From Acidobacteriota bacterium (GTDB lineage: Bacteria > Acidobacteriota > Thermoanaerobaculia > Gp7-AA8), in contig JBDTOZ010000386.1 in NCBI GenBank assembly GCA_039932995.1, forward strand, positions 1-52,375: a stretch of DNA of 52,375 nt. The letters run 5' to 3'. The number at the start of each line of letters is the position of its first letter. Position 1 is the first letter of the stretch. Below are positions 1 to 44,944 of the stretch, one piece after another. The translations under genes were made by a program, and so were the position numbers. The notes beneath the pieces are model-generated. The model was not told the DNA's origin, did not search any database, and saw only the letters and a program-made list of their open reading frames with translations.

Positions 1-438
1 CCGGATCGAGCGGCACATACGCTCCCCCCGCCTGCAGAATGCCCAGCGCGCCCACGATCACGTCCGGGGTTCGCTCCATGCACAGCCCCACCAGCCGGTC
101 CGGCCCCACACCCTGCCCCTGCAGGTAGAGTGCGAGCGTCTGACTCCGGTCGAACAGCTCCTGATAGGTCAGCCGCTCTTTGCCACATACCAGGGCGATC
201 TTCTCCCCATGGAGCGCGGCCTGGCGGACGAATCCGTCCTGCAGACACTCGTCGTTCGGATACTCCGCCCGCGTGGCGTTGTACTCGACCAGCAGCCGCC
301 GCTTTTCCGCGGCGCTCAGATACTCGAGGTCGCGGACCTTCGCGTGAGGCGCGGCCACAATGGCTCGGCACAGCGCCTGGAAGTGCTCGGCCATCCGCTC
401 AATGGTCTGGGGGCGATAAAGAGCGGTGCTGTATTCGA
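1..438. repeat. Intragenic direct repeat (C/A junction of module 4), near-identical to 3397-3834
   Basis: ccggatcgagcggcacatacgctcccccc... at position 1 recurs at 3397 (offset 3396) with scattered SNPs; it probably continues beyond the window. Confidence 0.85.
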
Positions 439-6400: not shown

Positions 6401-9400
6401 CTTGACGTCGCGTCGCAAGACCGCGCCCGTGGCATTCATCTGCGCGGCGTGCGCGCGGATCTCCGGCCACTGCCCATCCAGCGTGACGATCCGCGTCCCT
6501 GCCGGCGTGATCGCGCGCAGTCTGTCCCGCAGTCTCTCCTGGGTCAGCACGATCGAGGCCCCGCTGTCGGCCAGCATGTACGCCAGCCGGTCATCCGGAT
6601 AGTCCGGGTCCAGCGGTGCGTAGGCGCCGCCCGCGCGCAGGACACCCCACAGTCCCACGATCACGTCCAGCGACCGCTCCATGCACAGGCCCACTCGTTC
6701 GTCCGGCCCCACGCCTTCGGACTGCAGATACGCTGCGAGCTCCAAACTCCGCTCTCCGAGCTCCCTGTACGTCAGTTGCCCGTCGCTGGAGATCACCGCG
6801 GTTCGATCCGCGTGCAGGGCCACCTGCTCCTCGAACCGCTCATGCAGACAGACTTCGATGACTTCCGCCGTCGTCGGCTCATCGGAGCCCGCCAGCAACC
6901 GCTGCTTCTCGCTCTCACCGAGATAGCCGAGATCGCGGATTGCGCAGTGTGGTGCGTTCACAATAGCCCGGCACAGGGCCACGAAATGCTCGCAGATCCG
7001 GGCGATGGTCTGCGGCCGGTACAAGGCCGTGCTGTATTCGATCGATCCGGCCAGGCCTTCTTTTCCTTCCGTAAACGTGGCCGTCAGATCGAACTTGCTG
7101 ATACCGGTTTCCACCGGATAGAGCGGGAAGCGATCGTTTGCCTCCCCCACCTCCGCTGCATTCTGGAGGACCATCATCACTTGAAAGATCGGAGTGATGG
7201 CCAGGTTGCGCTGAAGACGCAGAAGGTCGACGACTTTGTCGAAGGGCGTGTCCTGATGCTCGTACGCCTCGAGACACGTGGACCTCACGCGAGCAAACAG
7301 CGCGGCGAAGTCATCCCCTCCCTCGACCTGGGTGCGCAGGGCCAGGGTGTTGATGAACATGCCGATCAGGCCGTCCGTCTCGCCGTACTGCCGATTGGCG
7401 ATCGGACTGCCGACGCATAGATCGCTCTGGCCCGTATAGCGGTACAGCAGCACGTTGAAGGCCGCCAGCAAGGCCATATAGAGCGTGCCGCCTTCGCGCT
7501 GGGCCAGGCTCCGCAGCTCGCCGGCCAGTTGCGCGTCGAGGGTGAACGCATGGGTCGCACCTGCGTAACTCCGCGCGGCGGGACGCGGATAGTCCGGCAC
7601 CAGGTCGAGACTCTCCGGAAGGTCGGCCAGTATCTTCCGCCAATACGCCAGTTGCTTCTCGAGAATCCCACTCTCGTCGAGCCACGTTCTCTGCCACACG
7701 CTGTAGTCGACGTACTGAACCGGCAGGGTTGCAAGCTCCGGCTCCTGTCCCTGCTCCAGCGCATCCATGATCCGCCCCAGTTCGTGGATCAGCAGACCGG
7801 TGGACCACCCATCACTGATGATGTGGTGCATGTTGAGGAGGAGGATGTGCTCGCGCGCGTCCAGGCGGATGACGCAGCCGCGAAGCAGCGGGCCACCGGC
7901 CAGGTCGAAGGACGTCTGCGCCTCCAGACGACAGAGCTCGGTCGTCTTTCGCTCGCGCTCCTCGCGGTTCTCATCACTGAGATCCACGCGCTTCAGCCTG
8001 AAGTCGATCCGCTCCAGAATGCGCTGTCGCGGCTGACCGTCGACCCTCGGGAACACAGTGCGCAGGTTCTCGTGACGCACAATGATTCGCTGGAACGCCT
8101 CTTCCAGCACATCGATCGCCAATTCTCCCTTGATGGTCACGGCCTTCGGGAGGTTGTAGACGGCGTTGCCGGGCTCGAGCTGATCGAAGAACCAGAGCCG
8201 CTCCTGCGCGAAGCTCAGGGGCAGCCGTTCATAGTGCGATCGGTCGATCGGACAGATCGGCGGGATGTCGTTCTGCGAAGCACCTGCAATGAGCTCGGCG
8301 AACGCGGCGATGGTGGTCTGCTCAAAGAGCGTCTTGAGCGGCAGGTCGACGTTCAAGCGCCCTCGGATTTTTGAGATCAGCCTCGTGGCCAGAAGCGAGT
8401 GTCCGCCCAGCTCGAAGAAGTCGTCGTGCCGGCCCACACGCTCCACATGCAGCAAGTCCTGCCAGAGCGTGGCCAGCGTCTCCTCGATCTCCCCACGCGG
8501 AGCCTCATACAGGCTCCTGGCGTAAGCCTCCGCCTCCGGTCGCGGAAGCGCGCGGCGGTCTATCTTTCCGTTCGGCGTCAGCGGCAGTGCCTCCAACAGC
8601 ACGAACGCCGAGGGAACCATGTACTGCGGCACACTGGCCACCATGTGCGCACGCAGCTCTTCCACCTCAGGCGCCATTCCGCTCGTGGTCACATACGCCA
8701 CCAGCCGCTTCTCGCCCGGCTCGTCCTCCCGCGCCAGCACCACCGCTTCCTTCACACGTGCATGCGCGACGAGCTGCGCCTCGATCTCTCCCAGCTCGAT
8801 CCGGAAGCCGCGGATCTTCACCTGGAAATCGTTCCGTCCCAGATATTCGACCGTTCCGTCGTCCAGCCACCGGGCCAGGTCCCCGGTCCGGTACATCCGG
8901 GCATCGTCCTCATCCGCGCGGAACCGATCGCGCACGAAACGCTCCGCCGTCAGCACGGGCTGGTTGAGGTATCCACGCGTCACCTGCCCGCCGCCGATCC
9001 ACAACTCGCCCGCAACTCCGATCGGCACCGGCTGCCCCTGCTCGTCCAGGATGTAGATCCGTGTCCCGTCCAGCGGCCTGCCCAGGGGGATGGCTCGGGA
9101 AGACGACCCGTTCCCTTCATGCTCGCCACAGAGCACACCGACACTGCATTCGGTGGGACCGTAGTGATTGAACACGCGGCATTCGGGACGAAGCTCACGG
9201 ACCCGATCCATGAGCGTGCGCGGCAACACTTCTCCGCCCAGAATCAGTGTGTGCGACGGAATCAATCGCGGATCTTCTCCATCTCCCAGCAATGCCAGCA
9301 GGTGCGAAGGGGTGATCTTCATGCAGTCGATGCGATGGGCCATGCAGTACGCGGCATAGTGATCGGCATCCGTGCTCGCTTCCCGGCCAAACACATGGAG

Positions 9401-10309
9401 GGTTCCTCCGCCCAGAAGTGCGGGGAAGAGAACCGTGTTGCCCAGGTCCGCGGCGAAGGTGGACACGAGCGCGTAAGACGCTCCCTCCGGAAACTCCAGC
9501 TTCTTCTCGATGGCCGTCACATAGCGGACGATGTGACGGTGCTCGACCATCACTCCTTTCGGTCTGCCGGTCGAGCCTGAGGTGTACATGACATAGGCGA
9601 GGTGGTGGGGCTTGACGTCGCGTCGCAAGACCGCGCCCGTGGCATTCATCTGCGCGGCGTGCGCGCGGATCTCCGGCCACTGCCCATCCAGCGTGACGAT
9701 CCGCGTCCCTGCCGGCGTGATCGCGCGCAGTCTGTCCCGCAGTCTCTCCTGGGTCAGCACGATCGAGGCCCCGCTGTCGGCCAGCATGTACGCCAGCCGG
9801 TCATCCGGATAGTCCGGGTCCAGCGGTGCGTAGGCGCCGCCCGCGCGCAGGACACCCCACAGTCCCACGATCACGTCCAGCGACCGCTCCATGCACAGGC
9901 CCACTCGTTCGTCCGGCCCCACGCCTTCGGACTGCAGATACGCTGCGAGCTCCAAACTCCGCTCTCCGAGCTCCCTGTACGTCAGTTGCCCGTCGCTGGA
10001 GATCACCGCGGTTCGATCCGCGTGCAGGGCCACCTGCTCCTCGAACCGCTCATGCAGACAGACGTCGATGATTCCCCCCTCCGTGTTCGCGCCGGCGAGC
10101 GCCGCCACAGGCGTACGATCACGCTCAACCCATCCATGCGGAGCACCTTCAAGAAGGGCAATGATCTCCGATTTGAAGTGCACGATCCCGTCCTTGAGAT
10201 CGGTCGTGAGCATTCCCGGCGGCGCATAGCAATTCAACCGGCCGGCATCGGTGGACAACCTCACGCCTTTCACGGCCAATTTGTTGAGAAACTCTGTCAC
10301 CGTCTCCAT
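1..10309 (-). CDS. Multimodular NRPS, 3'-partial (runs off the window start): TubC-type docking domain-A(Asp)-T-C-A(Asp)-T-C-A(Ala)-T-partial T-C-A(start)
   Basis: Absent from the ORF track, presumably because it has no stop in the window; segments translated by hand. ATG at 10309 follows AAGGAAGGA and gives METVTEFLNKLAVKGVRLS. A3 motifs YVMYTSGSTGRPKG (x2) and YVIYTSGSTGVPKG. PCP motif FFELGGHSLL (x3). C motifs MHHIISDGWS (~7810), MHHIVSDGWS (~4600) and MHHIISDGW (~1210), each C domain starting LSFAQERLWF (LCL-like). Hand-read codes: DLTKIGHVGK (Asp/OH-Asp type) twice, DLYNNALTYK (Ala type) once. Confidence 0.93.
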   Translation of the reverse strand, partial: METVTEFLNKLAVKGVRLSTDAGRLNCYAPPGMLTTDLKDGIVHFKSEIIALLEGAPHGWVERDRTPVAALAGANTEGGIIDVCLHERFEEQVALHADRTAVISSDGQLTYRELGERSLELAAYLQSEGVGPDERVGLCMERSLDVIVGLWGVLRAGGAYAPLDPDYPDDRLAYMLADSGASIVLTQERLRDRLRAITPAGTRIVTLDGQWPEIRAHAAQMNATGAVLRRDVKPHHLAYVMYTSGSTGRPKGVMVEHRHIVRYVTAIEKKLEFPEGASYALVSTFAADLGNTVLFPALLGGGTLHVFGREASTDADHYAAYCMAHRIDCMKITPSHLLALLGDGEDPRLIPSHTLILGGEVLPRTLMDRVRELRPECRVFNHYGPTECSVGVLCGEHEGNGSSSRAIPLGRPLDGTRIYILDEQGQPVPIGVAGELWIGGGQVTRGYLNQPVLTAERFVRDRFRADEDDARMYRTGDLARWLDDGTVEYLGRNDFQVKIRGFRIELGEIEAQLVAHARVKEAVVLAREDEPGEKRLVAYVTTSGMAPEVEELRAHMVASVPQYMVPSAFVLLEALPLTPNGKIDRRALPRPEAEAYARSLYEAPRGEIEETLATLWQDLLHVERVGRHDDFFELGGHSLLATRLISKIRGRLNVDLPLKTLFEQTTIAAFAELIAGASQNDIPPICPIDRSHYERLPLSFAQERLWFFDQLEPGNAVYNLPKAVTIKGELAIDVLEEAFQRIIVRHENLRTVFPRVDGQPRQRILERIDFRLKRVDLSDENREERERKTTELCRLEAQTSFDLAGGPLLRGCVIRLDAREHILLLNMHHIISDGWSTGLLIHELGRIMDALEQGQEPELATLPVQYVDYSVWQRTWLDESGILEKQLAYWRKILADLPESLDLVPDYPRPAARSYAGATHAFTLDAQLAGELRSLAQREGGTLYMALLAAFNVLLYRYTGQSDLCVGSPIANRQYGETDGLIGMFINTLALRTQVEGGDDFAALFARVRSTCLEAYEHQDTPFDKVVDLLRLQRNLAITPIFQVMMVLQNAAEVGEANDRFPLYPVETGISKFDLTATFTEGKEGLAGSIEYSTALYRPQTIARICEHFVALCRAIVNAPHCAIRDLGYLGESEKQRLLAGSDEPTTAEVIEVCLHERFEEQVALHADRTAVISSDGQLTYRELGERSLELAAYLQSEGVGPDERVGLCMERSLDVIVGLWGVLRAGGAYAPLDPDYPDDRLAYMLADSGASIVLTQERLRDRLRAITPAGTRIVTLDGQWPEIRAHAAQMNATGAVLRRDVKPHHLAYVMYTSGSTGRPKGVMVEHRHIVRYVTAIEKKLEFPEGASYALVSTFAADLGNTVLFPALLGGGTLHVLGREASTDADHYAAYCMAHRIDCMKITPSHLLALLGDGEDPRLIPSHTLILGGEVLPRTLLDRVRELRPECRVFNHYGPTECSVGVLCGEHEGNGSSSRAIPLGRPLDGTRIYILDEQGQPVPIGVAGELWIGGGQVTRGYLNQPVLTAERFVRDRFRADEDDARMYRTGDLARWLDDGTVEYLGRNDFQVKIRGFRIELGEIEAQLVAHARVKEAVVLAREDEPGEKRLVAYVTTSGMAPEVEELRAHMVASVPQYMVPSAFVLLEALPLTPNGKIDRRALPRPEAEAYARSLYEAPRGEIEETLATLWQDLLHVERVGRHDDFFELGGHSLLATRLISKIRGRLNVDLPLKTLFEQTTIAAFAELIAGASQNDIPPIRPIDRSRYERLPLSFAQERLWFFDQLEPGNAVYNVPRVITLSGVLEISQLDQAFNLIMERHEILRTCFPSDEGIARQEIQAHLHFQLERVDLRHYTGEARHAKVQELCGAEAVRPFDLARGPLFRGKVLKLTEYEHILILTMHHIVSDGWSLGVLIKELGLILDALREGRQPELAPLPIQYSDYSIWQRNWLDEGGKLQRQLGYWEEKLAGAPESLDLVTDHPRPNAQTFAGATHAFRIEVPLAEKIKSLAQREGGTLYMALLAAFNVLLHRYTGQGDLCVGSPIANRQYGETEDLIGMFANTVALRTRIEGHQSFTELLAQVKDTCLEAYEHQDAPFEKVVDILRPQRNLAMSPIFQVMFILQNADLGRLDPRFPRLLLDSVVSKFDLTAAFTETPDGLDGLIEYSTALYRPQTIERMAEHFQALCRAIVAAPHAKIRDLDYLSAAEKRRLLVEYNATRAEYPQDECLQDGFVRQAALHGEKIALVCGKERLTYQELLDRSQTLALYLQGQGVGPDRLVGLCMERTPDVIVGALGILQAGGAYVPLDPEYPDDRLTHMLRDSQAAIVLTQESLGEKLSSLMPAGTQLIAVDRQWPEIREQVAELQRSGLSLRREVGPHDLAYVIYTSGSTGVPKGVAIEHHSPVTLVHWASDVYSHEELAGVLASTSVCFDLSVYEIFVTLANGGTIILVPNALGLIDLDHRESVTLINTVPSAMEELVRAGAVPDSVLTINLAGEPLSTSLVDRIYNTTSARKVYDLYGPSEDTTYSTYVLREPNASPTIGRPIANTQVYILDRANHSQPIGVAGELHIAGDGLARGYLNRRELTEERFVPNPFEPGTRMYKTGDLARWLDDGTIQYLGRIDTQVKVRGFRIELGEVEARLQQHPEIQDSAVVAQGQDGERQLVAFYRAKGSEAGQLVELAYEELRSHLLKTLPDYMVPAAFVSLEAIPLNPNGKVDRRALARMDVTIASGQAYVGPRNDTEKQLVAIWAEVLRLAPETIGIHDNFFELGGHSLLATQLVAKIRSRLNVELALKVLFERSTVARLGEVCAKAEGVDAALAGDGRQQGQEDRHSLLAAQLMARIRGRADLDSSLKALLEQTSVAELAQMMADAETSVPVPAEAEPSPSAIRPVDRSRGERLPLSFAQERLWFVHELEPDGSIYNVPIAVTLHGDLDLSQLDQAFQWIIARHENLRTIFPSREGQAEQRILENLDFTLARTDLSHYENLQARDERARELCQAETAVPFDLSRGPLLRGRVIKLEAQQHILLLNMHHIISDGWSQGILIRELGLVMEALREGRRPELAPLPIQYADYSVWQRTWLEQSGTLEKQLAYWQKKLTGAPETLDLVTDFSRPRVQSFAGATYSFALDTQLSRQLKSLAQIQGGTLFMILLAAFKTLLHRYTGQDDICVGTPIANRQHAETEGLIGMFVNTLALRSQVKDDEAFSNLLAQVKTTCLEAYEHQDTPFERVVDILHPQRNLAITPIFQIMVILQNADLGTLDQRFPRYPMDSGISKFDLTASFTETAQGLTGSLEYSTALYRPQTIERMAEHFQALCRAIVAAPHAKVRDLEYLSAAEKRRLLVEYNATRAEYPNDECLQDGFVRQAALHGEKIALVCGKERLTYQELFDRSQTLALYLQGQGVGPDRLVGLCMERTPDVIVGALGILQAGGAYVPLDP
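3397..3834. repeat. Intragenic direct repeat (C/A junction of module 3), partner of 1-438
   Basis: Direct comparison, offset 3396. Confidence 0.85.
4943..6853. repeat. ~1.9 kb near-identical A-T duplication (module 2 copy)
   Basis: Matches 8153-10063 at offset 3210. The ORF track shows identical shadow ORFs in both copies (e.g. 5161..5757 and 8371..8967). Confidence 0.95.
8153..10063. repeat. ~1.9 kb near-identical A-T duplication (module 1 copy)
   Basis: Matches 4943-6853 at offset 3210. Confidence 0.95.
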
Positions 10310-10461
10310 GGCTGATCCTTCCTTCGCATCTCGTTTCATCCGCGACGCAGAAGCCATCGCGTTCATTTTGTCTGAGGGATTTCTTGTCGATCCTCGAGTG
10401 AGGCCGGCGCGGCAATGAGGGCCGCGGACTCGTTTCGGAGCGGGATCGACGTCGTGAACTA

Positions 10462-10547
10462 AGGAGTCTGCGCGGTAGAGGCATTTGCCTCGGAGCGACC
10501 GTACGTGCCCAAGGCTATGCCAACCAGCGCTGGCGGCCGTGCCGCCC
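10462..10547. repeat. Dispersed ~98 bp repeat, copy A (shortened, 86 bp), abutting the stop of the upstream NRPS-like gene
   Basis: aggagtctgcgcgg...cggagcgaccgtacgtgcccaaggctatgccaaccagcgctggcggccgtgccgccc; shared with 36643-36740 and 51992-52089. Confidence 0.85.
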
Positions 10548-13500
10548 TAAAGTCGGGTCTTTCCCAGATACTGGATGCTGCCGTCCTCGCGCCAGCGGGC
10601 CCGATCGGCTGTCCTGAACATTCGCAGGCCAGGCTCGAATGGATTCTCGACAAAGAAATCCTTCGTCAGTGCCGCACGATTCAGATACTCCGCGGCCACC
10701 GTCTCGCCCCCAACAAAGAGCTGGCCCGCAACGCCAATGGGTTGCGGTCGATTGGCTGGGTCGAGGATATAGACCCGCGCTGCGCGAACCGGCCAGCCAA
10801 TCAGCGCCAGAGACGACGCCTGTTCCGAACCGTCACACACTGTGACCGCACCGCCAGCTTCGACGGGACCATAAACACAATCAAGCGAAGCCTCGGGAAA
10901 CCTCGCACGCAAACGAAGGACGCTTTCCCGGTCCAGAGGATCCCCGTGCCAGAAGAGACTGCGCACCTTGCCGCCGTCACAAACGCCCTCTTCCTGCAAT
11001 GCGCGGAGAAGAGCCGATCCGAGCCACAACGTCGTTACGCCTGATTGATCGATGAAGTCGCCCAGCCGGCGTGCATCTTGTGACGGCGCCGCTTGTGCAA
11101 AGACCACCGTCGCGCCTGCCGCCATGGGCCAGAGAAGCTCCCAAAGAAAAGTGACCTGCCCTGAGGGGGAGTGGTGCAAGACGATGTCACCGGGCCCCAA
11201 GGGCCGCCGGGCCTGCATCCACGCGATGTGAGTTGCCACGACCCGCGCGCCGAGCCTGACACCGGCAGGCTTGCCCGCCACGCCGTGACTGAAGAGAATG
11301 AAACCGCCATCGTCGGCCTGGCCATCCGAACGCAATCCGGTGGCCTTGGTTTGGGGATCGGCAGCGTATTGCTCGATCTCGGCCCACTGCCTGTCCAATG
11401 AGATCAGTCGCGCCCCGCGGACCGCAAGAGCGGCCAACCTGTATTTGAACGTCTCCTGTGTGAGGACGATGGAAGCACCACTGTCCTGCAACATCGCCGC
11501 GAGTCTGGCGTCCGGTTCCCCGAGGTCCAGAGGGACACATGTGCCACCCGCGATGGCGGTACCCATGATTCCGATCATCATGTCCGAGGAGCGAGCCATC
11601 CCCAATGCGACGGTGCCTCCGCGCGCCAGTCCGGCGGACTGCAGAAACACAGCGAGCTCGCGGCTCCGACGATCGAGCTCTGCGTAGGACAACACCAGGT
11701 CCCCACAGTTCACCGCCGGCCGATCCGAGTGATTCGCGACCTGCCCGCCAAACATTTCGAGGAAATGACGCACCGTTGGCATCACCGCATGATCTTCGTT
11801 GTACTCGATCAGAACGCGGTGTCTCTCCGCCTCGCTCAGGAATTCCAGGTCGCAGATCTTCCCGGACGGCTTCGCAACGATGGCGCGGCAAAGGTTGGAG
11901 AAATGACCGGCGATGCGCGCGATGGTGGCCGATTCGTAGGTGAGGGGATTGTATTCAATGAACCCGGCCACGCCGTCGACCGTCTCCGCCACCCTCATCT
12001 CGATGTCGCGCCCCACCTCGCCGGTCCCCTCCTCCCGCCACCCCTGCCGGCTGAACATGATCGTGAGAAGGTTTTCACCACCAGTCCTGAGCAAATCCGC
12101 CACCCGCTCGAACGACACATCCTGATGCCCGATCGCGTCGGCCCATGTCGTCTTCACGCGTGCGTGAAATGCGGAGAACGTGTCCTCCGGCTCTACCCGA
12201 GTGCGAAGTGCCACAACGTGGCCGCTCGATGGGTCATCCTCGTTCGTGCTCGCCTCCAGCGAATCCCCGATCCTGCTTCCGATGAACAGATCGGTCTGAC
12301 CCGTATACCGGTACAGCAGCACCTTGAAGGCAGCCAGCAGGATCGTGAACAGCGTTCCGCCACGGAGCGCGGCCAGGCTCTCGAGGCCGGCGGACACTTG
12401 CGCATCGATCAGGAGCTCATATCTCGCTCGAGCGGAATTCCGCCGACTTGGCTCCGGGAAGTCCGACGGAATCATCAGAGCCGGCGGCACATCGGCCAGC
12501 TTCTCCCTCCAATACGAAAGTTGACGCTTCCGGACGACTTCCACCAACGCACGCTGGTCAACCTCGCCTGCGAAGTTTCTCGGAATCACTCCGACGCTGA
12601 TGAACGCCACCGGGATGATCGATTCCCGCAACGTCCGCCGCAGGTGCTCACGAAGCTCCGCCTCCGGCAGTGCGACAACGCGCTCGGGCTTCGTGCTCTT
12701 GCAACGATAAGCAGCGGTGAGCCTCTGGTGGGGCGCCCGTCCAAGCACGAGCACGGCGCTCTCCTGCACATCTGGATGGCGATTGAGGTGCGCTTCGATT
12801 TCCTGCAGATGGACATGAATGCCGTCGATCAGGATCTTTCTGTCCGTGCGGCCGGCATGCTGAATGCGACCGTCGCTTCTCCTGAGCACGCGCTCGCCCG
12901 TTCTGTACGTCCGCTCCGGCGAGTCCCCAAAGGCACTGAACTTCGCCGCGGTCCAGTCGGGACGGTTCCGATACCCGCGCGCCACACCAGCACCCGAAAC
13001 GTGTAACTCGCCCCGGACACCCGTCGGCTGAAGGTGGCCGTGCCGATCGGCGACCGAAAGGTGCATGCCCGTGAGCGGATCTCCCATCGACAGCGCGTCG
13101 CTTCCCGGTTTCACCAATGACGCGGATGCGACAGTGGCCGTCTCCGCCGCGCCGTACAAACTCCAAAGGGGGCCGCCAGTCTCCAGGAGCCGATGCGCGA
13201 GTCCTCGCGGCAGCGCTTCGCCGGCAGAGAGCATCGTCAGCTTGGGGTTGCCGGACCACCGTGCCGCGAGCAACCCACGCCAGGTCGAAGGTGTGGCCTG
13301 CAGCATCGTCGCCCCACAGGTCCTGAGCGTTTTCAGCAGAGCAACGGCGTCGTGGCGGAGATCTCGTGCGGACAAAACCAAACGGGCCCCGGCCGCCAAC
13401 GGAAGGAGCAGCTCCAGAACGGCTGCGTCGAGCGACGCGGGAGCCAGTGCCATGAACGTGTCGTTCCTGGTGATCCCTGTCTTGTCGCGCATCGAGCGCA

Positions 13501-15631
13501 GGAGGCTCACCAACGCGCGATGAGGGAGCTCCACGCCGAGGGGTTCGTCTTCAGGACCGGACGTGTAGAGAACATAGGCCAGGCCGCCCGGTGCCACCAG
13601 CGACTTCAACGCGACCCCTGCCGCCTGCAACGCGGTGGCCCGGCTCGCGATCTGCTCCGCGTCACCGTCGACCGCGACGAAGCAAATGCCGGAAGGCGCG
13701 CAGGCAACGAGTCTTTCGCGGAGCGGCTCCTCGGTCAGCACGACGGCTGAATCACTGTTGCGCAGAATGGCGGTCAGGCGCTCGTCCGGGTCGTCGGGAT
13801 CCAGCGGCAGACAGGCCCCTCCTGCCCGAAGGACGCCGAGAACACTGACCACCAGTTTCGCGGACCGCGTCATACAGAGAGCCACCGGCCGGTCCGGCCC
13901 GACACCTAGCGTTTGCAGGTAGAGCGCGAGCTGGCGGCTTTCGTCTTCGAGCTGCGCGTACGTCAGTTGCGTCTCGCCACAAACGACCGCCACGCTCTCG
14001 CCGCAGCGCGATGCCTGCTCGAGAAGCAACCCGTGCAGGCTCTGGTCAGCGTCGCCCTGCTCCGGATTTTCCATCCCGGCCGGCAACGGACGCTCCCCGT
14101 CGGGCAGCATCGGGTAGGTCTCCAGCGATCGCGTGGGGTCTGCGCGGATGGCGCTGAGCAACGCACAATAGTGCGAGAAGAGGCGCGCGATGGTCTCGGT
14201 GCTGTAGAGCTCCGGATCGTGTTTGATGTGGATGTTGAAGGATTCCCCTTCGCCCTCATAGACCTCTAGTCCGAGCTCGAAGTCGCCCTCCTGCCATACT
14301 CCGGCAACGCTCTCGAGTTGAAAGGTCTCTTGTTGAAGCATGGAGAGGAAGTCCGCGGGTCGAACGAAGTTCTGGTATGCATAAGAGATGCGGAGAAGTG
14401 GGCCATCATCGTTGCGCCGGGCATGCAGACCCTCGATCATCAAGGGAAAGGGGTAGCTGGAGTGATAGAGCGCGTCCAGCATCGTCCCCCGCACTTTCCG
14501 CAGGAAGGCCGGCAACTCGATCGACTCGCCGAATCGCGTGCAGATCGGAACGAGGTTGATGAAATAGCCGACTTCCGCCGAAAACTGACGCGACGGCCGG
14601 CCCATGACCGGCATTCCGACGACGATGTCATCCTGATCTGTATGGCGATGAAGCAACAGTTGGAACACGGCCAGGAAGATCACCGACGACGGCAACGACT
14701 GCGCCTTGCTGAACTCGCGGATCCATTGGCAAAGGTCTGCTGGCAGAGCCTCGACGAGTGTGTCGCCCGTGAAGCTCTCGGTCGATTTACGGCGACCATC
14801 GGGCGGAAGCTCTGTGCCCGGTCGATGGCCCTCGAGTTGCCGCTGCCAATAGCGAGCATGCGCGCCGCCCTCCGCCGAGGCGAGCATCGCTTCCTCCCAG
14901 GCAACGAATTCCCGATAGTTGCCCCGCGGTGGCTGTGGCCCTGTGGTGCGGCCCTTGGCCAATTGTAGGTAACGCTCGATGAGGGCCTTCAGAGTGATCA
15001 CCGCCGAGGCCCCGTCAAAGACGATGTGGTGGACTGTGAGCAAGAGCACGGGTTTCTGGCCGGGAGGCACAAACAGTTCGATGCGCGTGAGTGGGCCGCT
15101 ACTCAAATCGAAGGGCCGCTTGACGCGCTCCCGCAGCGCGGCCACCAGTTGCTCGTCGCTCGTGAAGTCGACGGCGTACTGCTGGAGGCTCGTCCGGCAA
15201 CGCTCGTCCGGACGCTGCACCAAATCGGCGCCCTCTTCGAAGATCCGCGCCGTCAGGATGGGATACTCATCCAGCACCTGACCCCACGCCTTGTCCAGCA
15301 GTGCGGGCTCAATTCCGGCACTGATCCGGAAACAGAGGGGCACGTTGTAGGCGCTCATTCGCGGGTATCGCCGCTGCAGGAGATACAACCCCTTCTGTCC
15401 CGAAGACAGGGGGAATCCGCGGGGTTGCTGCTCGCCTCCCGCGGCAGGAGACCTCTTCGCTTCCATGCGCGCCAGGAGAGCGAGGAGCTCCGGCTTGAAC
15501 CGAAGGATCCCGTCCTTGAGATCCGTCGTGAGCGCTCCGCTCCGTGCGTGGCACTGGATCCGTCCTTCCTGTGCGGAAAGCTTGACGCCCCGGTTGGCCA
15601 GCTCGTCGAGGAACTCTGTCACTGTTTCCAT
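10547..15631 (-). CDS. NRPS-like protein: docking domain-C (intact)-degenerate A-half C-degenerate truncated A; no PCP
   Basis: ORF 10547..15673, likely start METVTEFL at 15631. C motif HHIVFDG. A3 reads YTSGPEDEPLG and A10 reads AGEVDQRAL (catalytic Lys replaced). No GxxS PCP motif seen. Second A3 reads FSHGVAGKPAG and the protein ends at A8 (DGSIQYLGKTRL*). Confidence 0.9.
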   Translation of the reverse strand: METVTEFLDELANRGVKLSAQEGRIQCHARSGALTTDLKDGILRFKPELLALLARMEAKRSPAAGGEQQPRGFPLSSGQKGLYLLQRRYPRMSAYNVPLCFRISAGIEPALLDKAWGQVLDEYPILTARIFEEGADLVQRPDERCRTSLQQYAVDFTSDEQLVAALRERVKRPFDLSSGPLTRIELFVPPGQKPVLLLTVHHIVFDGASAVITLKALIERYLQLAKGRTTGPQPPRGNYREFVAWEEAMLASAEGGAHARYWQRQLEGHRPGTELPPDGRRKSTESFTGDTLVEALPADLCQWIREFSKAQSLPSSVIFLAVFQLLLHRHTDQDDIVVGMPVMGRPSRQFSAEVGYFINLVPICTRFGESIELPAFLRKVRGTMLDALYHSSYPFPLMIEGLHARRNDDGPLLRISYAYQNFVRPADFLSMLQQETFQLESVAGVWQEGDFELGLEVYEGEGESFNIHIKHDPELYSTETIARLFSHYCALLSAIRADPTRSLETYPMLPDGERPLPAGMENPEQGDADQSLHGLLLEQASRCGESVAVVCGETQLTYAQLEDESRQLALYLQTLGVGPDRPVALCMTRSAKLVVSVLGVLRAGGACLPLDPDDPDERLTAILRNSDSAVVLTEEPLRERLVACAPSGICFVAVDGDAEQIASRATALQAAGVALKSLVAPGGLAYVLYTSGPEDEPLGVELPHRALVSLLRSMRDKTGITRNDTFMALAPASLDAAVLELLLPLAAGARLVLSARDLRHDAVALLKTLRTCGATMLQATPSTWRGLLAARWSGNPKLTMLSAGEALPRGLAHRLLETGGPLWSLYGAAETATVASASLVKPGSDALSMGDPLTGMHLSVADRHGHLQPTGVRGELHVSGAGVARGYRNRPDWTAAKFSAFGDSPERTYRTGERVLRRSDGRIQHAGRTDRKILIDGIHVHLQEIEAHLNRHPDVQESAVLVLGRAPHQRLTAAYRCKSTKPERVVALPEAELREHLRRTLRESIIPVAFISVGVIPRNFAGEVDQRALVEVVRKRQLSYWREKLADVPPALMIPSDFPEPSRRNSARARYELLIDAQVSAGLESLAALRGGTLFTILLAAFKVLLYRYTGQTDLFIGSRIGDSLEASTNEDDPSSGHVVALRTRVEPEDTFSAFHARVKTTWADAIGHQDVSFERVADLLRTGGENLLTIMFSRQGWREEGTGEVGRDIEMRVAETVDGVAGFIEYNPLTYESATIARIAGHFSNLCRAIVAKPSGKICDLEFLSEAERHRVLIEYNEDHAVMPTVRHFLEMFGGQVANHSDRPAVNCGDLVLSYAELDRRSRELAVFLQSAGLARGGTVALGMARSSDMMIGIMGTAIAGGTCVPLDLGEPDARLAAMLQDSGASIVLTQETFKYRLAALAVRGARLISLDRQWAEIEQYAADPQTKATGLRSDGQADDGGFILFSHGVAGKPAGVRLGARVVATHIAWMQARRPLGPGDIVLHHSPSGQVTFLWELLWPMAAGATVVFAQAAPSQDARRLGDFIDQSGVTTLWLGSALLRALQEEGVCDGGKVRSLFWHGDPLDRESVLRLRARFPEASLDCVYGPVEAGGAVTVCDGSEQASSLALIGWPVRAARVYILDPANRPQPIGVAGQLFVGGETVAAEYLNRAALTKDFFVENPFEPGLRMFRTADRARWREDGSIQYLGKTRL

Positions 15632-15681
15632 GGAGTGATGTCTGCAGCTCGAAAACGACCGCGCTTCTCGCAAGTTGAAAT

Positions 15682-18600
15682 TCAGAACGTCACGATCTCG
15701 TAGCCGTCATCGGGCGTGACGTCGGCCTGCCACAGCACTCGCTCCAGTACCTGGTCGCGATCCATCCCCGCCTGCGCGGCCGAGACGTCGGCATGCTCCG
15801 GTGACCGGACCTCTTTGTCTGCGAGGACATCGTCCTTCGGGCGCAGCGGCGCCGGTTTGGCGGGATGGAGCGGTCGCGATTGCTCTAACGGTGACGCTTC
15901 GCCGGCGATTCGGATCACATGGAGGACATCGATCTTGGCCGGATATGTCTTTGCGAGATAGGTGGCCAGGCTCTTGATGTCTGTGTAGTCGAAGAGCGCA
16001 CTCGGCGACAACTCCTCCTCCAGAAGCTGATTGAGGTTCCGGATGAGGTGCGCAATGGACAATGACGGAAGCCCCAGATCGAAGTAGCTCCGATCCAGGG
16101 GAACGCTCTCGATCGGCACTTGCAGTTGGACCGCGGTGGCCTGCTTCAGGAAGAGCTCCATCTTCTCCGCGGCGCCCATCGATCCATTGCGCGAGACCAC
16201 TGCACTCCCGGCCGCGATCTCTTTGGAGAAGAGCCAGCGAGGCTGAACTTCTTCCGTCGTGGCCGCCACTTCCCGATCGAAGTCGATTCCTTGCAGGGCG
16301 AGGGGCCTGGCACCGAATTCCGGCCGGGCCGGGGCTCCGGTCACCCAATAGCGCTCGCGCGCAAAAGGATACGTGGGCAATGGCACCCGTTTGGACTCCG
16401 TGGAGAACAGAGCCTGGAGGTCGATGGAATAGCCTTGGACAAAGAGTCCGGCGAGGGCATCGAGGCTCTCTACATACGCGGCGTCGTCCGTCGCGCTCCG
16501 GCACTCGTCGACGCAGTAATTTCCGAACTTTCTGAGGGCGGGCTGCTCCCGAACGCCACCCTCGGGGACCTCACCCGTGTGGACTTGCCGCGCCTCTCCG
16601 GTCTCGAGCCACCGCTCGAGAGCTTCGACCGCCTCCGGCAGACTGCCGGTCACACAAGCGAGTCGATGAGAGAGATGCATGCGGCCGACGAAGAGTGTGA
16701 AGCTCACATCGCTCAGAGCGAGATCCGGCGTGCCGCGGAGATGCTCCAGCAGGTTGCGGGCGTGCTCTCGCAGTTGCTCGCCACTCCGTGCGGAGAGCAG
16801 CAACAGTGAGGCCGGCACGTCCACGCCGGCACGCGTCTGGGAGGGGGCTTCTTCGATCACCAGGTGGGCGTTCGTACCACCGAAGCCGAATGAGCTCACG
16901 GCGCCCCGCCGCGCCCGATCCTCTCCCTGGGGCCAGTCTTTCAGCTCCGTATTGACGTAGAACGGTCCACTCCCGAGGTCGATGCCGGGACTGGGGCTCT
17001 GGAAATGGAGGGACGGCGGAATCTGACCGTGCTTCAGCGAGAGCAGGAGCTTGAGGAGGCTGGCGATCCCGGCCGCATTCCCCGCATGGCCGATATTGGT
17101 CTTCACTGAGCCGAGAGCGCAGAACTGCTGCCTTTCGGTATAGGCGCGAAACGCACGGGTCATTGCTCCATGCTCGATCGAATCGCCCAGGAGCGTACCG
17201 GTCCCGTGAGCTTCGAACATCTGAATGGTTCCGGGATCGATCGTGAACCGTTCATACACGGAGCGCTCCAACCGCTCCTGTGCACGTCCATTAGGTGCGG
17301 TCAGCCCATTGGATCGTCCGTCCTGATTGACGCCGCTGCCTGCAATCACTCCGTAAATGTGATCCCCGTCCCGCTGGGCGTCGCTCAAGCGTTTCAACAC
17401 CACCACGCCCACCGCTTCGCCCGGGACGAAACCGTTGGCGCGCGCGTCGAAGCTGTAGCATTTCCCATCGGGAGAGAGCATGCCTGCCCGGTTGCCGACC
17501 TGGTGAAACCCGGACGTGGCCTGGACATAGACACCGCCGGCCAGCGCCATCTCCGTCTCTCCGCACCACAATCCCTGACAGGCGAGATGCACAGCCACGA
17601 GTCCGCTCGAGCAGGCGGTATCGACGGCAACGGCCGGCCCCTGGAGATCGAGATGGTAGGCGATCCGCGAAGGAACGATCGAGTGCGAATTCCCCCACCA
17701 GGCCTGCGCTGGCGGATCATCTCCGAAGAGGTCCGAGTAATTGGAGGTTCCGCAGCCGACATAGACGCCACACTGCTTTTCCTGAACGCCTTTTCCGGCG
17801 TAGCCCGCATCTTCCAACGCCTTCCACGACTCTTCGAGGAACAGCCGTTGCTGCGGATCCATGTACAGGGCTTCACGCGCGGGGATGCCGAAGAACCCGG
17901 GATCGAAGCGATCGAAGGTGTCGATCGAGCTGGCCTGACTGCAATACGCGTGGCCATTCGAGCCCGACGCCGAGCAATCCGCGGCGCTCCACCGCGAGAC
18001 TTCCCGCACCAGGTTCGAGCCTTGCGCGAGGTGCTGCCAGAACTCCTCCAGCGTTTCCGATTGAGCGAAACGCCCGCTCATCCCGATGATGGCGATGCGC
18101 TCGGCACGGACCTCTCGGGCGCTGCCGCTCTGGCCCTCGACACGGGTCTGGTCCTTTTCGCCGACTTCATCGACTCGTAGAAACCGACGCGCCCCACTCA
18201 CCGGAATCCGATTCGGACTGGCGTCGCCGGAAGGGGTTCGCACCTCTACTGGCGTCGTCGCGGAGGGCTGCGACTCTGTCATGCCGGGCGAGAGAGTGGT
18301 GATGTATTGCGTGAGCTGATCGACCGTGCTGTATTCGAAGAGCTTCGTCGGGTCCAGCTCGATGAGCAGCACTTCGTTGAGCGTGCGCACGAAATTGACG
18401 CCAATGATGGAGTCGAGACCGTAATCGGCGAGCGGCGCATCTCCGCGAATCATGCCCGCATCCAGCCGGAGCGCCCGGGATAACTGCGTCACGATCACCT
18501 GTTGGATTTGACTGCTTCCCATCTGCACCGTCCGCTGCGCCGAAAAGCCGGCGTCCCTTGCACTGTCTCGTGTCACGGCCGGAGCCGTATTCTTGATTTC

Positions 18601-21600
18601 GACCGCGGGGCTCGCCGGCGCCGCGGCAGAAATCTGCCTCGACAGATGGCGCGTGATGGCCTCCGTCAGACTGGCGCCGACCGGAGCCTCGGCATTGAGC
18701 GTCTTGATCAGCGTCATCTGCTCGACATCCGATCGCATGAACCCCTGCAGCGCCGCCATCCCCTCGTCCGGCGTGATCAGGCCCATTCCGAGCCGGGCCA
18801 TGATCTTGTGATGCGACGGGTCGGCCGCGACACCGACCGTGCCCCAATAGCCCCAGTTCATGATTTTGACGGGGTACGCGCGCTCCTGCTGCAGTCTCTG
18901 CGCGAAGCTGTCCTTGAACGCGCAACCCGCCGCATAGTTCGACTGCCCGGGCGACCGGAAGAACGAGATGATCGAGGAGAAGAACAGCATGAAATCCAAT
19001 GCGTCTCCACCGAATACACGATCGATCTGCACACTCACATCGACCTTCGCCGTCAGGCCCGCTCGGAAACTCTCCTCGTCCATGCGCAGGAGGCTCTGAT
19101 CCCTCAGCACAATGGCGGAATGCACCACTCCATGGATGGCAGGATGCTTTTCCAGGATGGTCACGCGGGCCCGCTCCAGTGCGGCATGGTCCGTCGCATC
19201 AGCCGCGATGTAGAGGGGCGCCGGCCCGAGGAGACCCAGCTCTTTGATTTTGTCTTCGATCGACGCATCGCACTCACGGCGGCCGATCCAGATCAGGTTC
19301 GCGCCGTAATGCTCGATCATGAACCGGCTCCAGACCTCGCCGACCCCTCCCGCACCACCGACGACGACATAGACGCCGCCTTTTCGGTAGAGAGAAGTGC
19401 CCTCCTTGGGCGCGGGCAGGAGCTCCAATCCCTGCTGGAACCATTGGCCCTGACGATGGGCCCGCACGTTGCCCAACTCGTCCCACGGCTGCGAGAGGCA
19501 GCCGGACGCCGTCACGGCCTGGAGTGAATCGAGGTCGAGAACCCGCACATCCCAGTGCGGATACTCCTTGGCCAGACTACCCACCAGCCCGACGATCCCG
19601 GCGTGTGCAGGCTCAATGGTGTCCTCGGCTGTGACGCGCTGTGTCCTTCCGGTCAGGAGAGTCCATTGCAGTTTCTTGTTCCCATGACCGCGGTCCAGCA
19701 GGGTCTTGACGATTCTGAAAACCTGAAGAATCCCTTCTTCCTGCAGCGCGAGAATCGGTTCAGATCCTTCAACGCCATGCCCGGTCATTGGATCGAGGTC
19801 GGGAGCGATCCACAGTAGTTGATCGAAAGAGTCATGGGAGAGCATGTCGCCGTCGAGTGCCTCACTCGCCATCTGCGCGACGTCGCAGGGCCGTGCGTTT
19901 GGATACGACTGCCGGACCCACTCCAGCGCCGCGCCACGACTATCCAGCAGCACGATCCGGCTGGACATCGGAAGGGTGTCGCCGTTCACGTCTGCAGCCG
20001 GGCTCCAGGTGGAGCGTAGTGAGTGCAGGGTGGCGTTCGCCGCCAGGGATGGAGTATCGCTCGACCCCGGCACTGCTCTCTCCTGAATGCGCCGTGCCGG
20101 CAATGGCTTGGCGACAAAGTCCCTCACCCGCAGCAGGATCTCGCCGGCCGCGTCGAGGAGATGAAGCTGCATTCTGACTGCGCTCCCCGCCTTGTTCACC
20201 TCGACCGGATCCCAGGACGCATGCGCATACCGCGCGCCCTGTAATGAACGGAATACCTGGATCTCCGCCGCGGAGTACGGAACGCTCCAGGGCCGGTCGT
20301 CGCCGCTCCGGCGTTTCACGAAGCCGATGGCCGTGTGCAGAGCGCCATCGAGCAAGGAAGGATGCAGCCAGTAATGACCCGCGTCTTCCTGAAGATGCTC
20401 GGGAAGATGCAATACGGCCAAACACTCGCTTTCGCCTGCGTCAACCCGCTGGACGACCTGGAAACCAGGACCGAGATTCAGTTCGGACGTGGAAAGGAAT
20501 CGGTACCAGTCCGCGCCGTCGATCATTTCCGTCGCGCAACGTTCTCGGATCTCGGCCAGATTCAGGGCATTCGGCGGAGACAAGGTCCCGAGATAGGCCA
20601 GTTGGCCGCGACAATGAGTGACCGCGCTCTCTCCTTCGCCGCTCTTGACCGCGAACTCGACCCCATTGCGGGCGGGAAGCAGCGAGACCTCGACGTCCTG
20701 TCCGCTCTTGCCCACGGTAATCGGCGACAGCCAGACCATGTTGCTGAGGAACCGGACCTTCCGCTCGCCGGCCAGCTCACCGGCCGCGGCGGCCATCTCG
20801 ATATAGGCAACGGCCGGCAGAACCGGCTCCGTCTTCACGCGATGGTCCGCCAGGAAGAATTCAGCTCCCGTGAACCGCGACGTGAACTTCTGCTCGATCA
20901 GTGTCGAGACGTTGCGGTGAATCAAAGGATGCAGGCGGACTTCCGTCGCCGCGCTTTGCGGACGCCGGGTTTCAGACTGTGTTTCCGCTCCCGCCGGAAT
21001 CCAGTAGCGCTCCCTGGCAAAGGGATAGGTCGGGGCCGAGAGACGCCGGCGAGCTCCGGCTTGGTGGAGGAGACGCCAGTCGATCTTCGTCCCCGCAACC
21101 CATGACTCGGCCAATCCGGCAAGGTCTCTCCGAGAGATGAGGTCCTGCACGAAGGCGGTCTTCTCCGCGTCCGTCCCCTGTACCGCGCTTCGGACTTCGC
21201 GGCCATTGCGGTAGCCGTCTCGCGGCCATTCTTCGCTAACGACGATCGCCGAGAGTTTCTGCTTCAATTCTTCCAGGCTCGAGACCAGCCAGGCCGCTCG
21301 GGCCTGCATCTCGTCTCTGCCTACCTGCAGCGTGTAAGCAAGGTCGGCCAGTTCCACTGACCCGCGTTCCAGATACTCGGACAGCGAGCGAACATACGCG
21401 CGGAGGCGCTCCTCATTCTTCGCGGACAGGACGATCAATTGGAGCTCGTTCGCGACGACGGCCGCCGGGCGGCTTGCCGGAATGTACTCCTCCAGCACCA
21501 CGTGAGCATTCGCCCCACCAAATCCAAAGGAGCTCACACCCGCCCTGCGTGGAGCAAGCGACCCGTCCTCGCTCACCGGAGCTTTCCACTCCGTCAGGCG

Positions 21601-36642: not shown

Positions 36643-36770
36643 AGGAGCCTGCGCGGCAGAATGTTTTCGCGAGGACGCACCGACGGAGCGACCGCACGTG
36701 CCCAAGGCTAAGCCAACCAGCGCTGGCGGCCGTGCCGCCCTATGCCAACCAGCGCTGCTGGCCGTGCCGG
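36643..36770. repeat. Dispersed ~98 bp repeat, copy B (36643-36740), followed by a ~30 bp tandem duplication of its right end; abuts the ABC ATPase stop
   Basis: aggagcctgcgcggcagaatg...gccaaccagcgctggcggccgtgccgccc then tatgccaaccagcgctgctggccgtgccgg. Confidence 0.88.
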
Positions 36771-44362: not shown

Positions 44363-44944
44363 TCAGACCTTGCGAGGTCCGGACCCGGCCTCGCTCGATT
44401 TCACCTGCGCTAAAAGCTCGCGCGGAAACTCCACGGCCACCGACTTTCGCAGAATCGACACCGAGACGATCAGGCGCATCGCGCCCCGCTCCTTGATGAC
44501 GATTCCGGAGTAGCCGCTGAATGCTCCCTCGGTGATGAGCACCGCGTCGCCGGGTGCCAGCTCGATGCGCGGAGTGAGCACGGCGCCGCTGACCTGGAGC
44601 TGCCGAATCTGCAGCAGCTCGCCCGCGAGCTGTGCCTGATCCGGAACCTGGATCATGCTGACCACGGCGCTGGTCCGCCACAGCGTCTGCCGGAGTCCCT
44701 CCACACGGCGGAGGAAGATGTAGCCGGGAAAAAGAGGCAAGTGAGAGACGAACGTCCGGCCGGAACGACGGCTCTTCTGCTCGATCTGCGGGAGATAGAA
44801 CGGCTTTTCGCCGTCGAGGAGCAGGCGGGCGACGGCCTTCTCCTGCCGGCTACGCAGGTGCGCGATCTCCCACGGCGCATCCACCGTGGGCAGGTCGAAC
44901 AGCTCGGCCGGGAAGATGTCGCTCTCTTTTCGCAGGATCGGCAT
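44363..44944 (-). CDS. NusG-paralog transcription antiterminator (RfaH/UpxY/LoaP/TaA-like)
   Basis: NGN domain (RSRQEKAVA, LPLFPGYIF) and KOW domain (PGDAVLITEGAFSGYSG, VSVSILRKSVAVE). Confidence 0.88.
   Translation of the reverse strand: MPILRKESDIFPAELFDLPTVDAPWEIAHLRSRQEKAVARLLLDGEKPFYLPQIEQKSRRSGRTFVSHLPLFPGYIFLRRVEGLRQTLWRTSAVVSMIQVPDQAQLAGELLQIRQLQVSGAVLTPRIELAPGDAVLITEGAFSGYSGIVIKERGAMRLIVSVSILRKSVAVEFPRELLAQVKSSEAGSGPRKV

Follow-up and report, generated by a model that had tools for sequence, protein, structure and literature searches.

Can a nonribosomal peptide synthetase (NRPS) in which most domains look dead still be a working enzyme? The question is raised by gene X, the minus-strand NRPS gene at 10547-15631 of contig JBDTOZ010000386.1 from an Acidobacteriota bacterium (assembly GCA_039932995.1). 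The contig was analysed whole (52,375 nt, hereafter the window) and belongs to a bin of 953 contigs. Upstream of gene X lies a trans-acyltransferase (trans-AT) polyketide synthase (PKS) gene and downstream the next NRPS gene, gene Y. An initial annotation, made from the window alone, had proposed that X supplies in trans a condensation (C) domain that joins the polyketide to aspartate on a peptidyl carrier protein (PCP) of Y, that its dead domains are kept as scaffold, and that the gene may be a snapshot of two modules being lost. Our comparisons with related loci suggest that the first of these ideas is probably right: the single C domain of X, C1, would act in trans on the first adenylation-thiolation (A-T) unit of Y, both proteins docking on the tail of the upstream PKS. 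As the best explanation of the data, C1 would be the sole catalytic part of X, through which X would still do its share in a trans-AT PKS/NRPS assembly line. The other two ideas fared less well, as described below.

To define the parts of X, we examined its extent, domains and motifs. The open reading frame (ORF) spans 10547..15673 and opens with TTG; homologues start with METVTEFL, which in gene X is the ATG at 15631, so the coordinates given initially are correct. Pfam identified an N-terminal TubC_N docking domain (hereafter dock; residues 18-67), which had gone unmentioned, a Condensation domain at residues 87-528 (profile 5-452/456) with a second partial stretch, an AMP-binding domain at residues 552-901, also with a second stretch, and a weak AMP-binding_C match (21.5 bits against a cut-off of 24.5). 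BLASTP against reference domains of the neighbouring genes resolved the order as dock, C1, a first A domain (A1, reference positions 5-502/510), a second C domain (C2, 169-443/443) and a second A domain (A2, 12-401/510). All motifs quoted in the initial annotation were found. The motifs located in X are HHIVFDG at residues 215-221, TSGPEDEPLG at 704-713, YRTGER at 923-928, NFAGEVDQ at 1033-1040, SYWREKL, the start of the half C, at 1053-1059, FSHGVAGKPAG at 1461-1471, and the protein end ...IQYLGKTRL at 1700-1708, at the A8 hinge. PCP1 and the N-terminal half of C2, with its His motif, are deleted.

C1 and the domains behind it differed sharply when measured against related domains. The two-lobe Condensation fold of C1 is complete (PF00668 profile positions 5-452 of 456), C1 keeps 76/78 columns that are near-invariant (at most two deviants) among 39 related C1 domains, and H215, H216, D220 and G221 are invariant in 8 family members. 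This comparison supports the view that C1 is a live, conserved condensation domain, as had been read from its His motif. For the A domains the yardstick was 45 working A domains of the same loci with 86 near-invariant columns. A1 keeps 58/86, with losses in the P-loop, A5, A7, A8 and A10; A2 keeps 45/86, 22 of the missing columns being the absent A-sub domain and further losses falling in the P-loop, at position 235 (numbered by what we take to be the PheA convention) and in A6/A7. The A3 P-loop consensus (T/S)SG(S/T)TGxPKG reads TSGPEDEPLG in A1 and SHGVAGKPAG in A2. The A10 Lys is Glu in A1 and lacking, with the whole A-sub domain, in A2. Asp235 is kept in A1, which has Glu for the A7 Asp, and A2 has Val at 235 and keeps the A7 Asp. 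No PP-binding domain (PF00550) was detected in X at E<=1. A hidden Markov model (HMM) built from 70 related T domains and run on all six-frame ORFs of at least 40 aa in the window matched four domains in Y, four in the PKS and no others; X gave no hit at E<=10 in whichever frame it was read, and the window yielded no carrier protein standing on its own. These results bear out the earlier description of a dead A1, a missing PCP, a second C domain that is a C-terminal half only, an A2 that stops at A8 and an uninterrupted frame, and A1, half C2 and the A2 core are on this evidence predicted to be non-catalytic. X does not look like a pseudogene, its frame being open over 1694 codons and pN lower than pS in every region.

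We then asked whether the odd anatomy could be an artefact, with the PCP and half C lost as assembly deletions or with X and Y wrongly joined. The source is a short-read metagenome bin of many contigs, with one repeat in the X-Y spacer and another, of 1.9 kb, inside Y. Contigs of four public runs from one study (none listed as RNA; one run may be the source itself) cover gene X and fill all 30 bins, and show neither indels nor joints. The junction between A10 and the half C, near 12535, lies within one 2466-nt contig of run X3 (12266-14731), which reads through it without a difference. The junction is thus spanned by contigs from runs beyond the likely source, and the identical junction and the X-then-Y order recur in independent assemblies. 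We therefore give next to no credence to a misassembly. Variant contigs of lower depth, with 6-7 differences, were present in several runs (12476-12560, 14833-14894 and 15043-15125), indicating that a second strain of the same gene X occurs in the samples. The public contigs break at 10510-10556, where a short element reaches ~50 times the flank depth, and the X-Y adjacency is based on the assembly and on synteny in five other loci.

To determine whether the layout is peculiar to the window, we searched for related proteins (1047 hits among 8000 scored candidates). Ten distinct proteins of other assemblies have the layout of X, and their records either bear the label Thermoanaerobaculia or are metagenomes without a label. 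A dock, a C and an A domain without PP-binding were seen in P0005, P0006, P0008, P0010, P0012, P0013 and P0014. Two more, P0125 (856 aa) and P0124, which is partial, came from a search of shorter proteins. The family alignment comprised 11 rows for 10 distinct proteins, one locus protein being P0014. All rows have the dock and a live-type C1 (HHI[VI][FI]DG), lack the PCP, keep only the C-terminal half of C2 and end at a common A8 hinge with 0-7 extra residues (~17 in L019X); the nine other distinct proteins with a visible C-terminus all share the end hinge of X. The parts behind C1 vary in length. The A1 relic has 516 residues in X; five members keep 328-483 of them, and four distinct members, making up five rows, keep 5-20, so that it is wholly deleted in 4/10 distinct members and appears to be dispensable. 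Half C2 ranges over 133-255 residues and A2 over 238-418, with large in-frame deletions inside A2 in P0006, P0008, P0012 and P0125, and 342 relic columns are filled in every row. We counted 107 gap blocks over 1178 relic residues against 14-16 over the 516 residues of dock and C1, an indel density about three times as high, and every indel preserves the frame. No clear X-clade protein consisting of dock and C only was found among 27 hits to shorter proteins, most of them cut by contig ends; one candidate, P0127 (529 aa, 51% identity, with a few unrelated residues after its C domain), was set aside as outside the identity levels of the X clade. The comparison with homologous clusters thus recovered the decayed form throughout the X-type family and an intact dock-C-A-T form in 25/46 related loci. 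It does not agree with a snapshot of modules being lost, since the X state is old (dS is saturated) and is a trait of the whole clade.

Phylogenetic trees placed the parts of X in a common history. The X-type C1 domains form one clade (7/7, SH-aLRT 96, tree of 39 rows), nested among C domains of ordinary dock-C-A-T elongation modules, and its nearest relatives include that of L050, an intact dock-C1-A-T-C-A-T-C-A-T gene. All of the half C2s (7/7) fall on one side of a branch with support 95. The A2 relics likewise form one clade (5/5, support 99), sister to working A domains with the code DVWHFSLIDK, presumably a serine code, among them the second A of L050 and, in L017, the first A of Y. Of the A1 relics, those of the window, L013 and L019 cluster together. 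That of L014 (L014:9959-14875) lies in the clade of DLYNNALTYK-type A domains, indicating that a dead domain was replaced by recombination. The window copy has the longest branches in all three trees, and terminal branches of the A2 relics are 0.35-1.07 long compared to 0.16-0.33 in the working sister group. Collectively, the trees indicate that the X layout has a single origin. The ancestor would have been dock-C1-A1-T1-C2-A2(Ser)-T2 and onward, rearranged most simply by a tandem duplication that stopped at the A2 hinge (A8), after which the X side would have lost PCP1 and the N-terminal half of C2, and the Y side C1-A1-T1 with or without C2. The duplication and the order of these events are inferred. 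The outcome would be complementary: X keeps C1, Y keeps A-T and all that follows, and module 1 is gone from the product. Two modules had been suggested as being lost; functionally, one module (A1-T1) appears to be lost, and the A-T function of the second persists in Y.

The strongest argument for action in trans came from what follows X. Domains were mapped in the window and in the best 46 of 116 loci (36 from genome contigs and 80 from metagenome contigs). In 25 of the 46, several of them near-copies of each other, A and T come after C1 within a single ORF; 15 were cut by contig ends, broken or odd; the X-type loci were L013, L014, L015, L017, L019 and the partial L049. The order PKS, X, Y holds in the window, L014, L017 and L019, and in L013 and L015 X is followed by Y with the PKS off the contig. 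Y, an NRPS ORF at 2-10366 that runs off the contig in the window, opens with a dock in 6/6 X-type loci that have the Y start visible. In the window, L014 and L017 this dock is followed directly by A-T, and in the window then by C-A-T, C-A-T and so on; the initial annotation was right that Y starts A-T with no C domain, but a dock of its own precedes the A. In the other three loci the dock is followed by a full-length C domain whose second His is lost (HRIIADS in L013, HQIVADG in L015, HQLISDA in L019). Among 36 full-length C domains of this type from 16 loci, the His pair is missing only in these three; one further domain reads HHVVSDA. No live C was therefore found in the first module of Y in any of the six loci, and no other C1-type domain was found in the source genome. 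C1 split from its module on one side and a first module of Y without a working C on the other together suggest that C1 acts in trans. Of the earlier proposal of a C domain supplied in trans to Asp-PCP, the live C1 and the missing partner C in Y hold by comparison across six loci, and catalysis in trans is probable. The gap from the X stop to the Y dock varies from ~20 to ~475 nt among the loci, which indicates that tight coupling is not conserved; translational coupling was set aside as the cause of the open frame, and polarity through untranslated RNA may account for it. In L033 (7651-11821), one frame encodes dock-C1 (609 aa) and a second, overlapping one A-T (824 aa), the break falling within the beginning of A and caused either by a sequencing frameshift or by an independent natural split after C. 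Upstream of the Y dock in L015 (3508-3890) is an open frame that repeats the low-complexity sequence TQSFDSATQSF... many times.

The same anatomy could mean that X is a stand-alone chain-release or acyl-transfer C domain of the Bamb_5915 or VibH type, coupling the polyketide with an amine or alcohol in free form, or with a carrier that lies beyond the window, while Y starts its own chain at A-T. A-T is the usual form of an NRPS initiation module, X is a dock and a C domain without PCP, and stand-alone dock-C enzymes such as Bamb_5915 are known (PMC9113145). Against this, Y keeps an N-terminal dock under purifying selection, which initiation modules do not need; a dead C stands between dock and A of Y in 3/6 loci, which argues that Y descends from an elongation module; and C1 is nested among the C domains of such modules. 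Nor are dock and C the only domains of X, in which ~1170 relic residues follow C1. We consider a stand-alone role distinctly unlikely and retain the action of C1 on Y.

Selection on the separate domains was compared by pairwise Nei-Gojobori estimates, in which dS is near saturation (0.8 to above 2), so that only contrasts between regions are readable. Median dN/dS was 0.14 for the last ketosynthase (KS) of the PKS, 0.17 for the X dock and 0.15 for the Y dock (15 pairs each), 0.23 for C1 of X, 0.27 for the first live C of Y and 0.32 for the first T of Y. Values were 0.34-0.60 for the A1 relic, 0.17-0.51 for both half C2 and the N-terminal part of A2, and 0.13-0.33 for the last 85 residues of A2; the dead C of Y had a median of 0.42 (3 pairs). 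C1 therefore evolves like live C domains, both docks are under purifying selection, and the relics are relaxed, perhaps ~1.3- to 2-fold, and not neutral (dN/dS ~0.2-0.6). The values between C1 of the window and the others (0.13-0.26) were not raised above those among the others (0.14-0.25), suggesting that the long branch of the window copy reflects divergence rather than relaxation. These contrasts bear on whether X, or the whole cluster, is an unused remnant of a duplication that is slow to decay. Two dead A domains, a missing PCP, half a C, relic indels about three times as dense as those of dock and C1, and the longest branches in three trees would all fit such a remnant. However, dock and C1 evolve as live domains do, pN is well below pS even in the relics, the C1 of the window shows no raised dN/dS, and the clade is old, yet 10 distinct proteins keep the frame open to a common end. 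A remnant is on balance very improbable.

If C1 is the working part, the long tail behind it needs an explanation. We modelled residues 1047-1708 with AlphaFold2 from an 8-row alignment, which gave a mean predicted local distance difference test (pLDDT) score of 81.6 and a predicted template modelling (pTM) score of 0.82, the low-confidence regions being loops of the half C. Foldseek placed the model on C-A didomains, the best being the serine modules of teixobactin synthetases Txo1/Txo2 (TM 0.83 on the query, 30-31% identity). The tail is thus predicted, in a model that leans on homology, to be a folded platform of half C and A core. The last 85 residues of A2 keep the general A-domain consensus. 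Gene conversion from the A domains of Y was considered as a means of keeping the A2 end and was set aside: same-locus identity was 0.46-0.77 against an other-locus maximum of 0.57-0.83.

A refinement of the trans reading is that half C2 and the A2 core form a required scaffold that binds Y or the PKS. No member, down to P0125 with its 856 aa, lacks the half C2 and A2 core; the 342 shared relic columns have a residue in each of the 11 rows; over the last 85 residues dN/dS is about as low as in C1, and same-locus gene conversion was not apparent there; the structural model is confident; and inactive A domains with proposed structural roles have been published (PMC13643306, PMC11291136). However, no partner or interface was found, large in-frame deletions in A2 are tolerated in the four members named above, and the C-terminus of X is unlike the PKS tail motif. 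A mimic was looked for in the window: the end of X (…DDGxIQYLGR) and the PKS tail (…SYEKVTF) share only 'DDG', and docking of Y on X by this means was rejected. An equal pattern is also expected if selection bars only frame breaks and misfolding; in that case the relics would persist because frame breaks would silence Y by polarity and unfoldable tails would be selected against. Of the earlier notion that the pseudo-domains are kept as scaffold, the conserved half C2 and A2 core, the dN/dS below neutral and the folded model can be retained, and the A1 relic, absent in 4/10 distinct members, and a binding role cannot. Even granting that C1 acts in trans, we lean against a specific scaffold role for the relics, and the refinement as a whole is unlikely.

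How, then, could X and Y work together? In the preferred reading, in which C1 serves Y, the dock of X would bind the acyl carrier protein (ACP) and tail at the end of the PKS, and C1 would take the polyketide from that ACP and join it to the amino acid, aspartate by code, on the first PCP of Y. The Y dock would bind a tail of this kind too, and its site would plausibly be on the second protomer of the PKS, which we presume to be a dimer with a tail on each. One elongation module would thereby be split over two proteins, with C on X and A-T on Y. Beta-hairpin docks engage the upstream carrier by its C-terminal motif, its body or both, and offer it to the C domain (PMC13324335, PMC9113145), and one tail motif can recruit more than one subunit with a docking domain (PMC9113145). 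All 28 related PKS C-termini listed end in a tail of the Y-[EDL]-x-x-[TA]-[FI] type, most commonly YEKVTF. A complex prediction of the last ACP and tail of the PKS (16 rows) with the Y dock (6 rows), run without controls, scored 0.22 and 0.21 against a mark of 0.32, which we count neither for nor against binding.

Several observations weigh against this arrangement. In the parts of PMC9113145 that enumerate them, docks are listed before C, E, Cy, TE, MT, reductase and halogenase domains and not before A, so that the layout of Y in the window, L014 and L017 looks unusual. Metagenome bins are the source of every X-type locus, and among the rows are some that are closely related. In five readable genomes of the same genus the best matches are intact dock-C1-A-T-C loci (L002-L006) and none is of the X type, which makes the distribution patchy; a sixth same-genus locus is cut by a contig end. 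The underlying tally counts G002, G024 and G030, which are unpublished; none of our claims depends on these three. The X-Y adjacency in the window crosses a ~90-nt dispersed repeat at which public contigs break, and modules 1 and 2 of Y share a 1.9-kb repeat of 99.2% identity, so that the module count of Y may be mis-assembled. Finally, the dN/dS values are rough with dS near saturation, and recombination among A and C domains is evident.

The coordinates of these features are given in Table 1. The PKS gene (15682-30528, 4948 aa, without AT domains) reads ACP, an LPG_synthase_C-like part, a PLP-dependent lyase-like part, two units of KS-dehydratase (DH)-ketoreductase (KR)-ACP and a final KS-ACP. 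Its loading region (27967-29946, minus strand) is unusual in that an ACP and parts of PF09924 (lysyl-phosphatidylglycerol synthase C-terminal, E 8e-14) and PF01212 (PLP-dependent beta-eliminating lyase, E 1e-28) all precede the first KS. Farther upstream are two discrete AT genes, a phosphopantetheinyl transferase (PPTase), an enoyl-CoA hydratase, a free KS, MacB/HlyD export genes and a NusG-like gene (44363-44944, minus strand, PF02357, E 2e-6), which, near trans-AT PKS genes, may be a dedicated antiterminator of a very long operon. In Y, the ten specificity positions of the first two A domains read DLTKIGHVGK and those of the third DLYNNALTYK, which we take to be aspartate and cysteine codes. 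The earlier labels 'Asp', 'Ser-like' and 'Gly-type' fit the specificity positions and the A-domain tree, with the amino-acid meaning of the codes presumed. The repeat inside Y is direct (8167-10066 and 4957-6856, 1900 nt, 3210 nt apart), makes the A-T parts of modules 1 and 2 near-identical, and indicates a recent duplication or gene conversion, with a risk of collapse or mis-joining in a short-read assembly. It was measured by script, a general repeat search of Y having returned only 300-nt families. After the third PCP of Y lies a half T domain (1706-1825, minus strand, profile positions 38-77) in which GGHS has become DRHS; it also occurs in L015 (Y residues 3463-3504), making it another conserved relic in the assembly line. 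The spacer repeat, resembling repetitive extragenic palindromic (REP) elements, had 120 BLAST hits in the assembly, up to ~100 of them over one position. It is ~60-90 nt long with a GC-rich hairpin (GGCGGC...GCCGCC), and further copies in the window lie at 36684-36769 and 52033-52089.

Table 1. Features of gene X and its surroundings in the window.
Feature	Position	Strand	Basis or remark
Gene X: dock, C1, A1 relic, half C2, A2-core relic	10547..15631	-	1694 aa from ATG
X dock, beta-hairpin (TubC_N)	15473..15622	-	PF18563, 41.3 bits, cut-off 26
X C1, predicted live condensation domain	14090..15415	-	His motif HHIVFDG at 15011-15031
A1 relic	12536..14020	-	Pfam, column counts, motifs
A1 relic, P-loop TSGPEDEPLG	13535-13564	-	
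A1 relic, A7 Asp to Glu	12890-12907	-	
A1 relic, A10 Lys to Glu	12554-12577	-	
C2, C-terminal half	11789..12535	-	Reference positions 169-443 of 443; SYWREKL start at 12497-12517
A2-core relic, Ser-type by descent, without A-sub domain	10550..11788	-	
A2 relic, degenerate P-loop	11261-11293	-	
A2 relic, end at A8 hinge	10550-10576	-	
PKS C-terminal tail DDGYEIVTF	15685..15711	-	Presumed short linear docking motif
Y start and beta-hairpin dock	10148..10309	-	Probable ATG 10309, behind AAGGAAGGA; PF18563, 41.5 bits
Y first module: A (code DLTKIGHVGK) and PCP, no C before	8279..10045	-	GGHS 8390-8407
REP-like dispersed repeat, X-Y spacer, from X stop codon onward	10462..10549	.	BLAST, depth

Two difficulties of NRPS engineering are the choice of points at which a module may be divided and the tolerance of C domains for partners foreign to them. 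In the present case evolution seems to have maintained, for long and across several lineages, a module divided between C and A, with a like dock on each half and dead domains left over. If C1 does act in trans, the split point would be one tested by evolution, a module would have been deleted through duplication and complementary loss, and the graded natural truncations (1694 to 856 residues) would show which relic parts are dispensable. For genome mining, colinearity would count two extra residues in such clusters and miss the link between PKS and peptide. In its fullest form the picture would be of a module built in trans by two subunits with paralogous docks (dock-C with a relic tail, and dock-A-PCP) on identical tails of one PKS, with the relic as a needed strut, and of an origin by domain-level duplication, degeneration and complementation with a module deleted from the product. 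We hold this to be improbable taken whole. If true, it would provide the first natural case of a dock immediately in front of an A domain, and nature's own recipe for the C/A cut. Full-text searches, with subscription journals lying outside them, found no published description of a dock-C protein with a relic tail and a dock-A-PCP partner.

At the canonical PKS-NRPS junction (EpoA/EpoB, TubB/TubC, PcdC/PcdK, DepC/DepD), an ACP and tail meet a dock-C-A-PCP protein (PMC13324335, PMC9113145). The PF18563 docks of X and Y, the conserved kind of PKS tail and the C type are alike in both; here, in contrast, C and A-PCP lie on two proteins, each with a dock, and X drags along a dead A, a half C and an A core and has no PCP. 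The stand-alone enzyme Bamb_5915 of enacyloxin biosynthesis reportedly releases its chain onto a free small-molecule nucleophile and carries no relic domains. X resembles it as a dock-C protein without A or PCP function of its own and with a carrier-bound acyl donor (PMC9113145), but the likely acceptor of X is an aminoacyl-PCP on a second dock-bearing protein. In the rhabdopeptide NRPS Kj12A-C one tail serves several dock partners, as proposed here (PMC9113145); those are complete alternative modules used in turn, whereas X and Y would be complementary halves of one module. Dead A domains are also kept, with a structural role proposed, in the Ax domain of Dol15D-M2 and the truncated A of FbsE, where loading occurs in trans (PMC13643306, PMC11291136). 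These sit inside complete modules with their own PCP, whereas the relics of X form a PCP-less tail behind its only live domain. Duplicated genes can be retained by duplication, degeneration and complementation, or subfunctionalisation. X and the head of Y follow a similar logic, each having lost what the other kept, with the difference that the process would have acted on domains within one module rather than on whole genes, after a presumed duplication.

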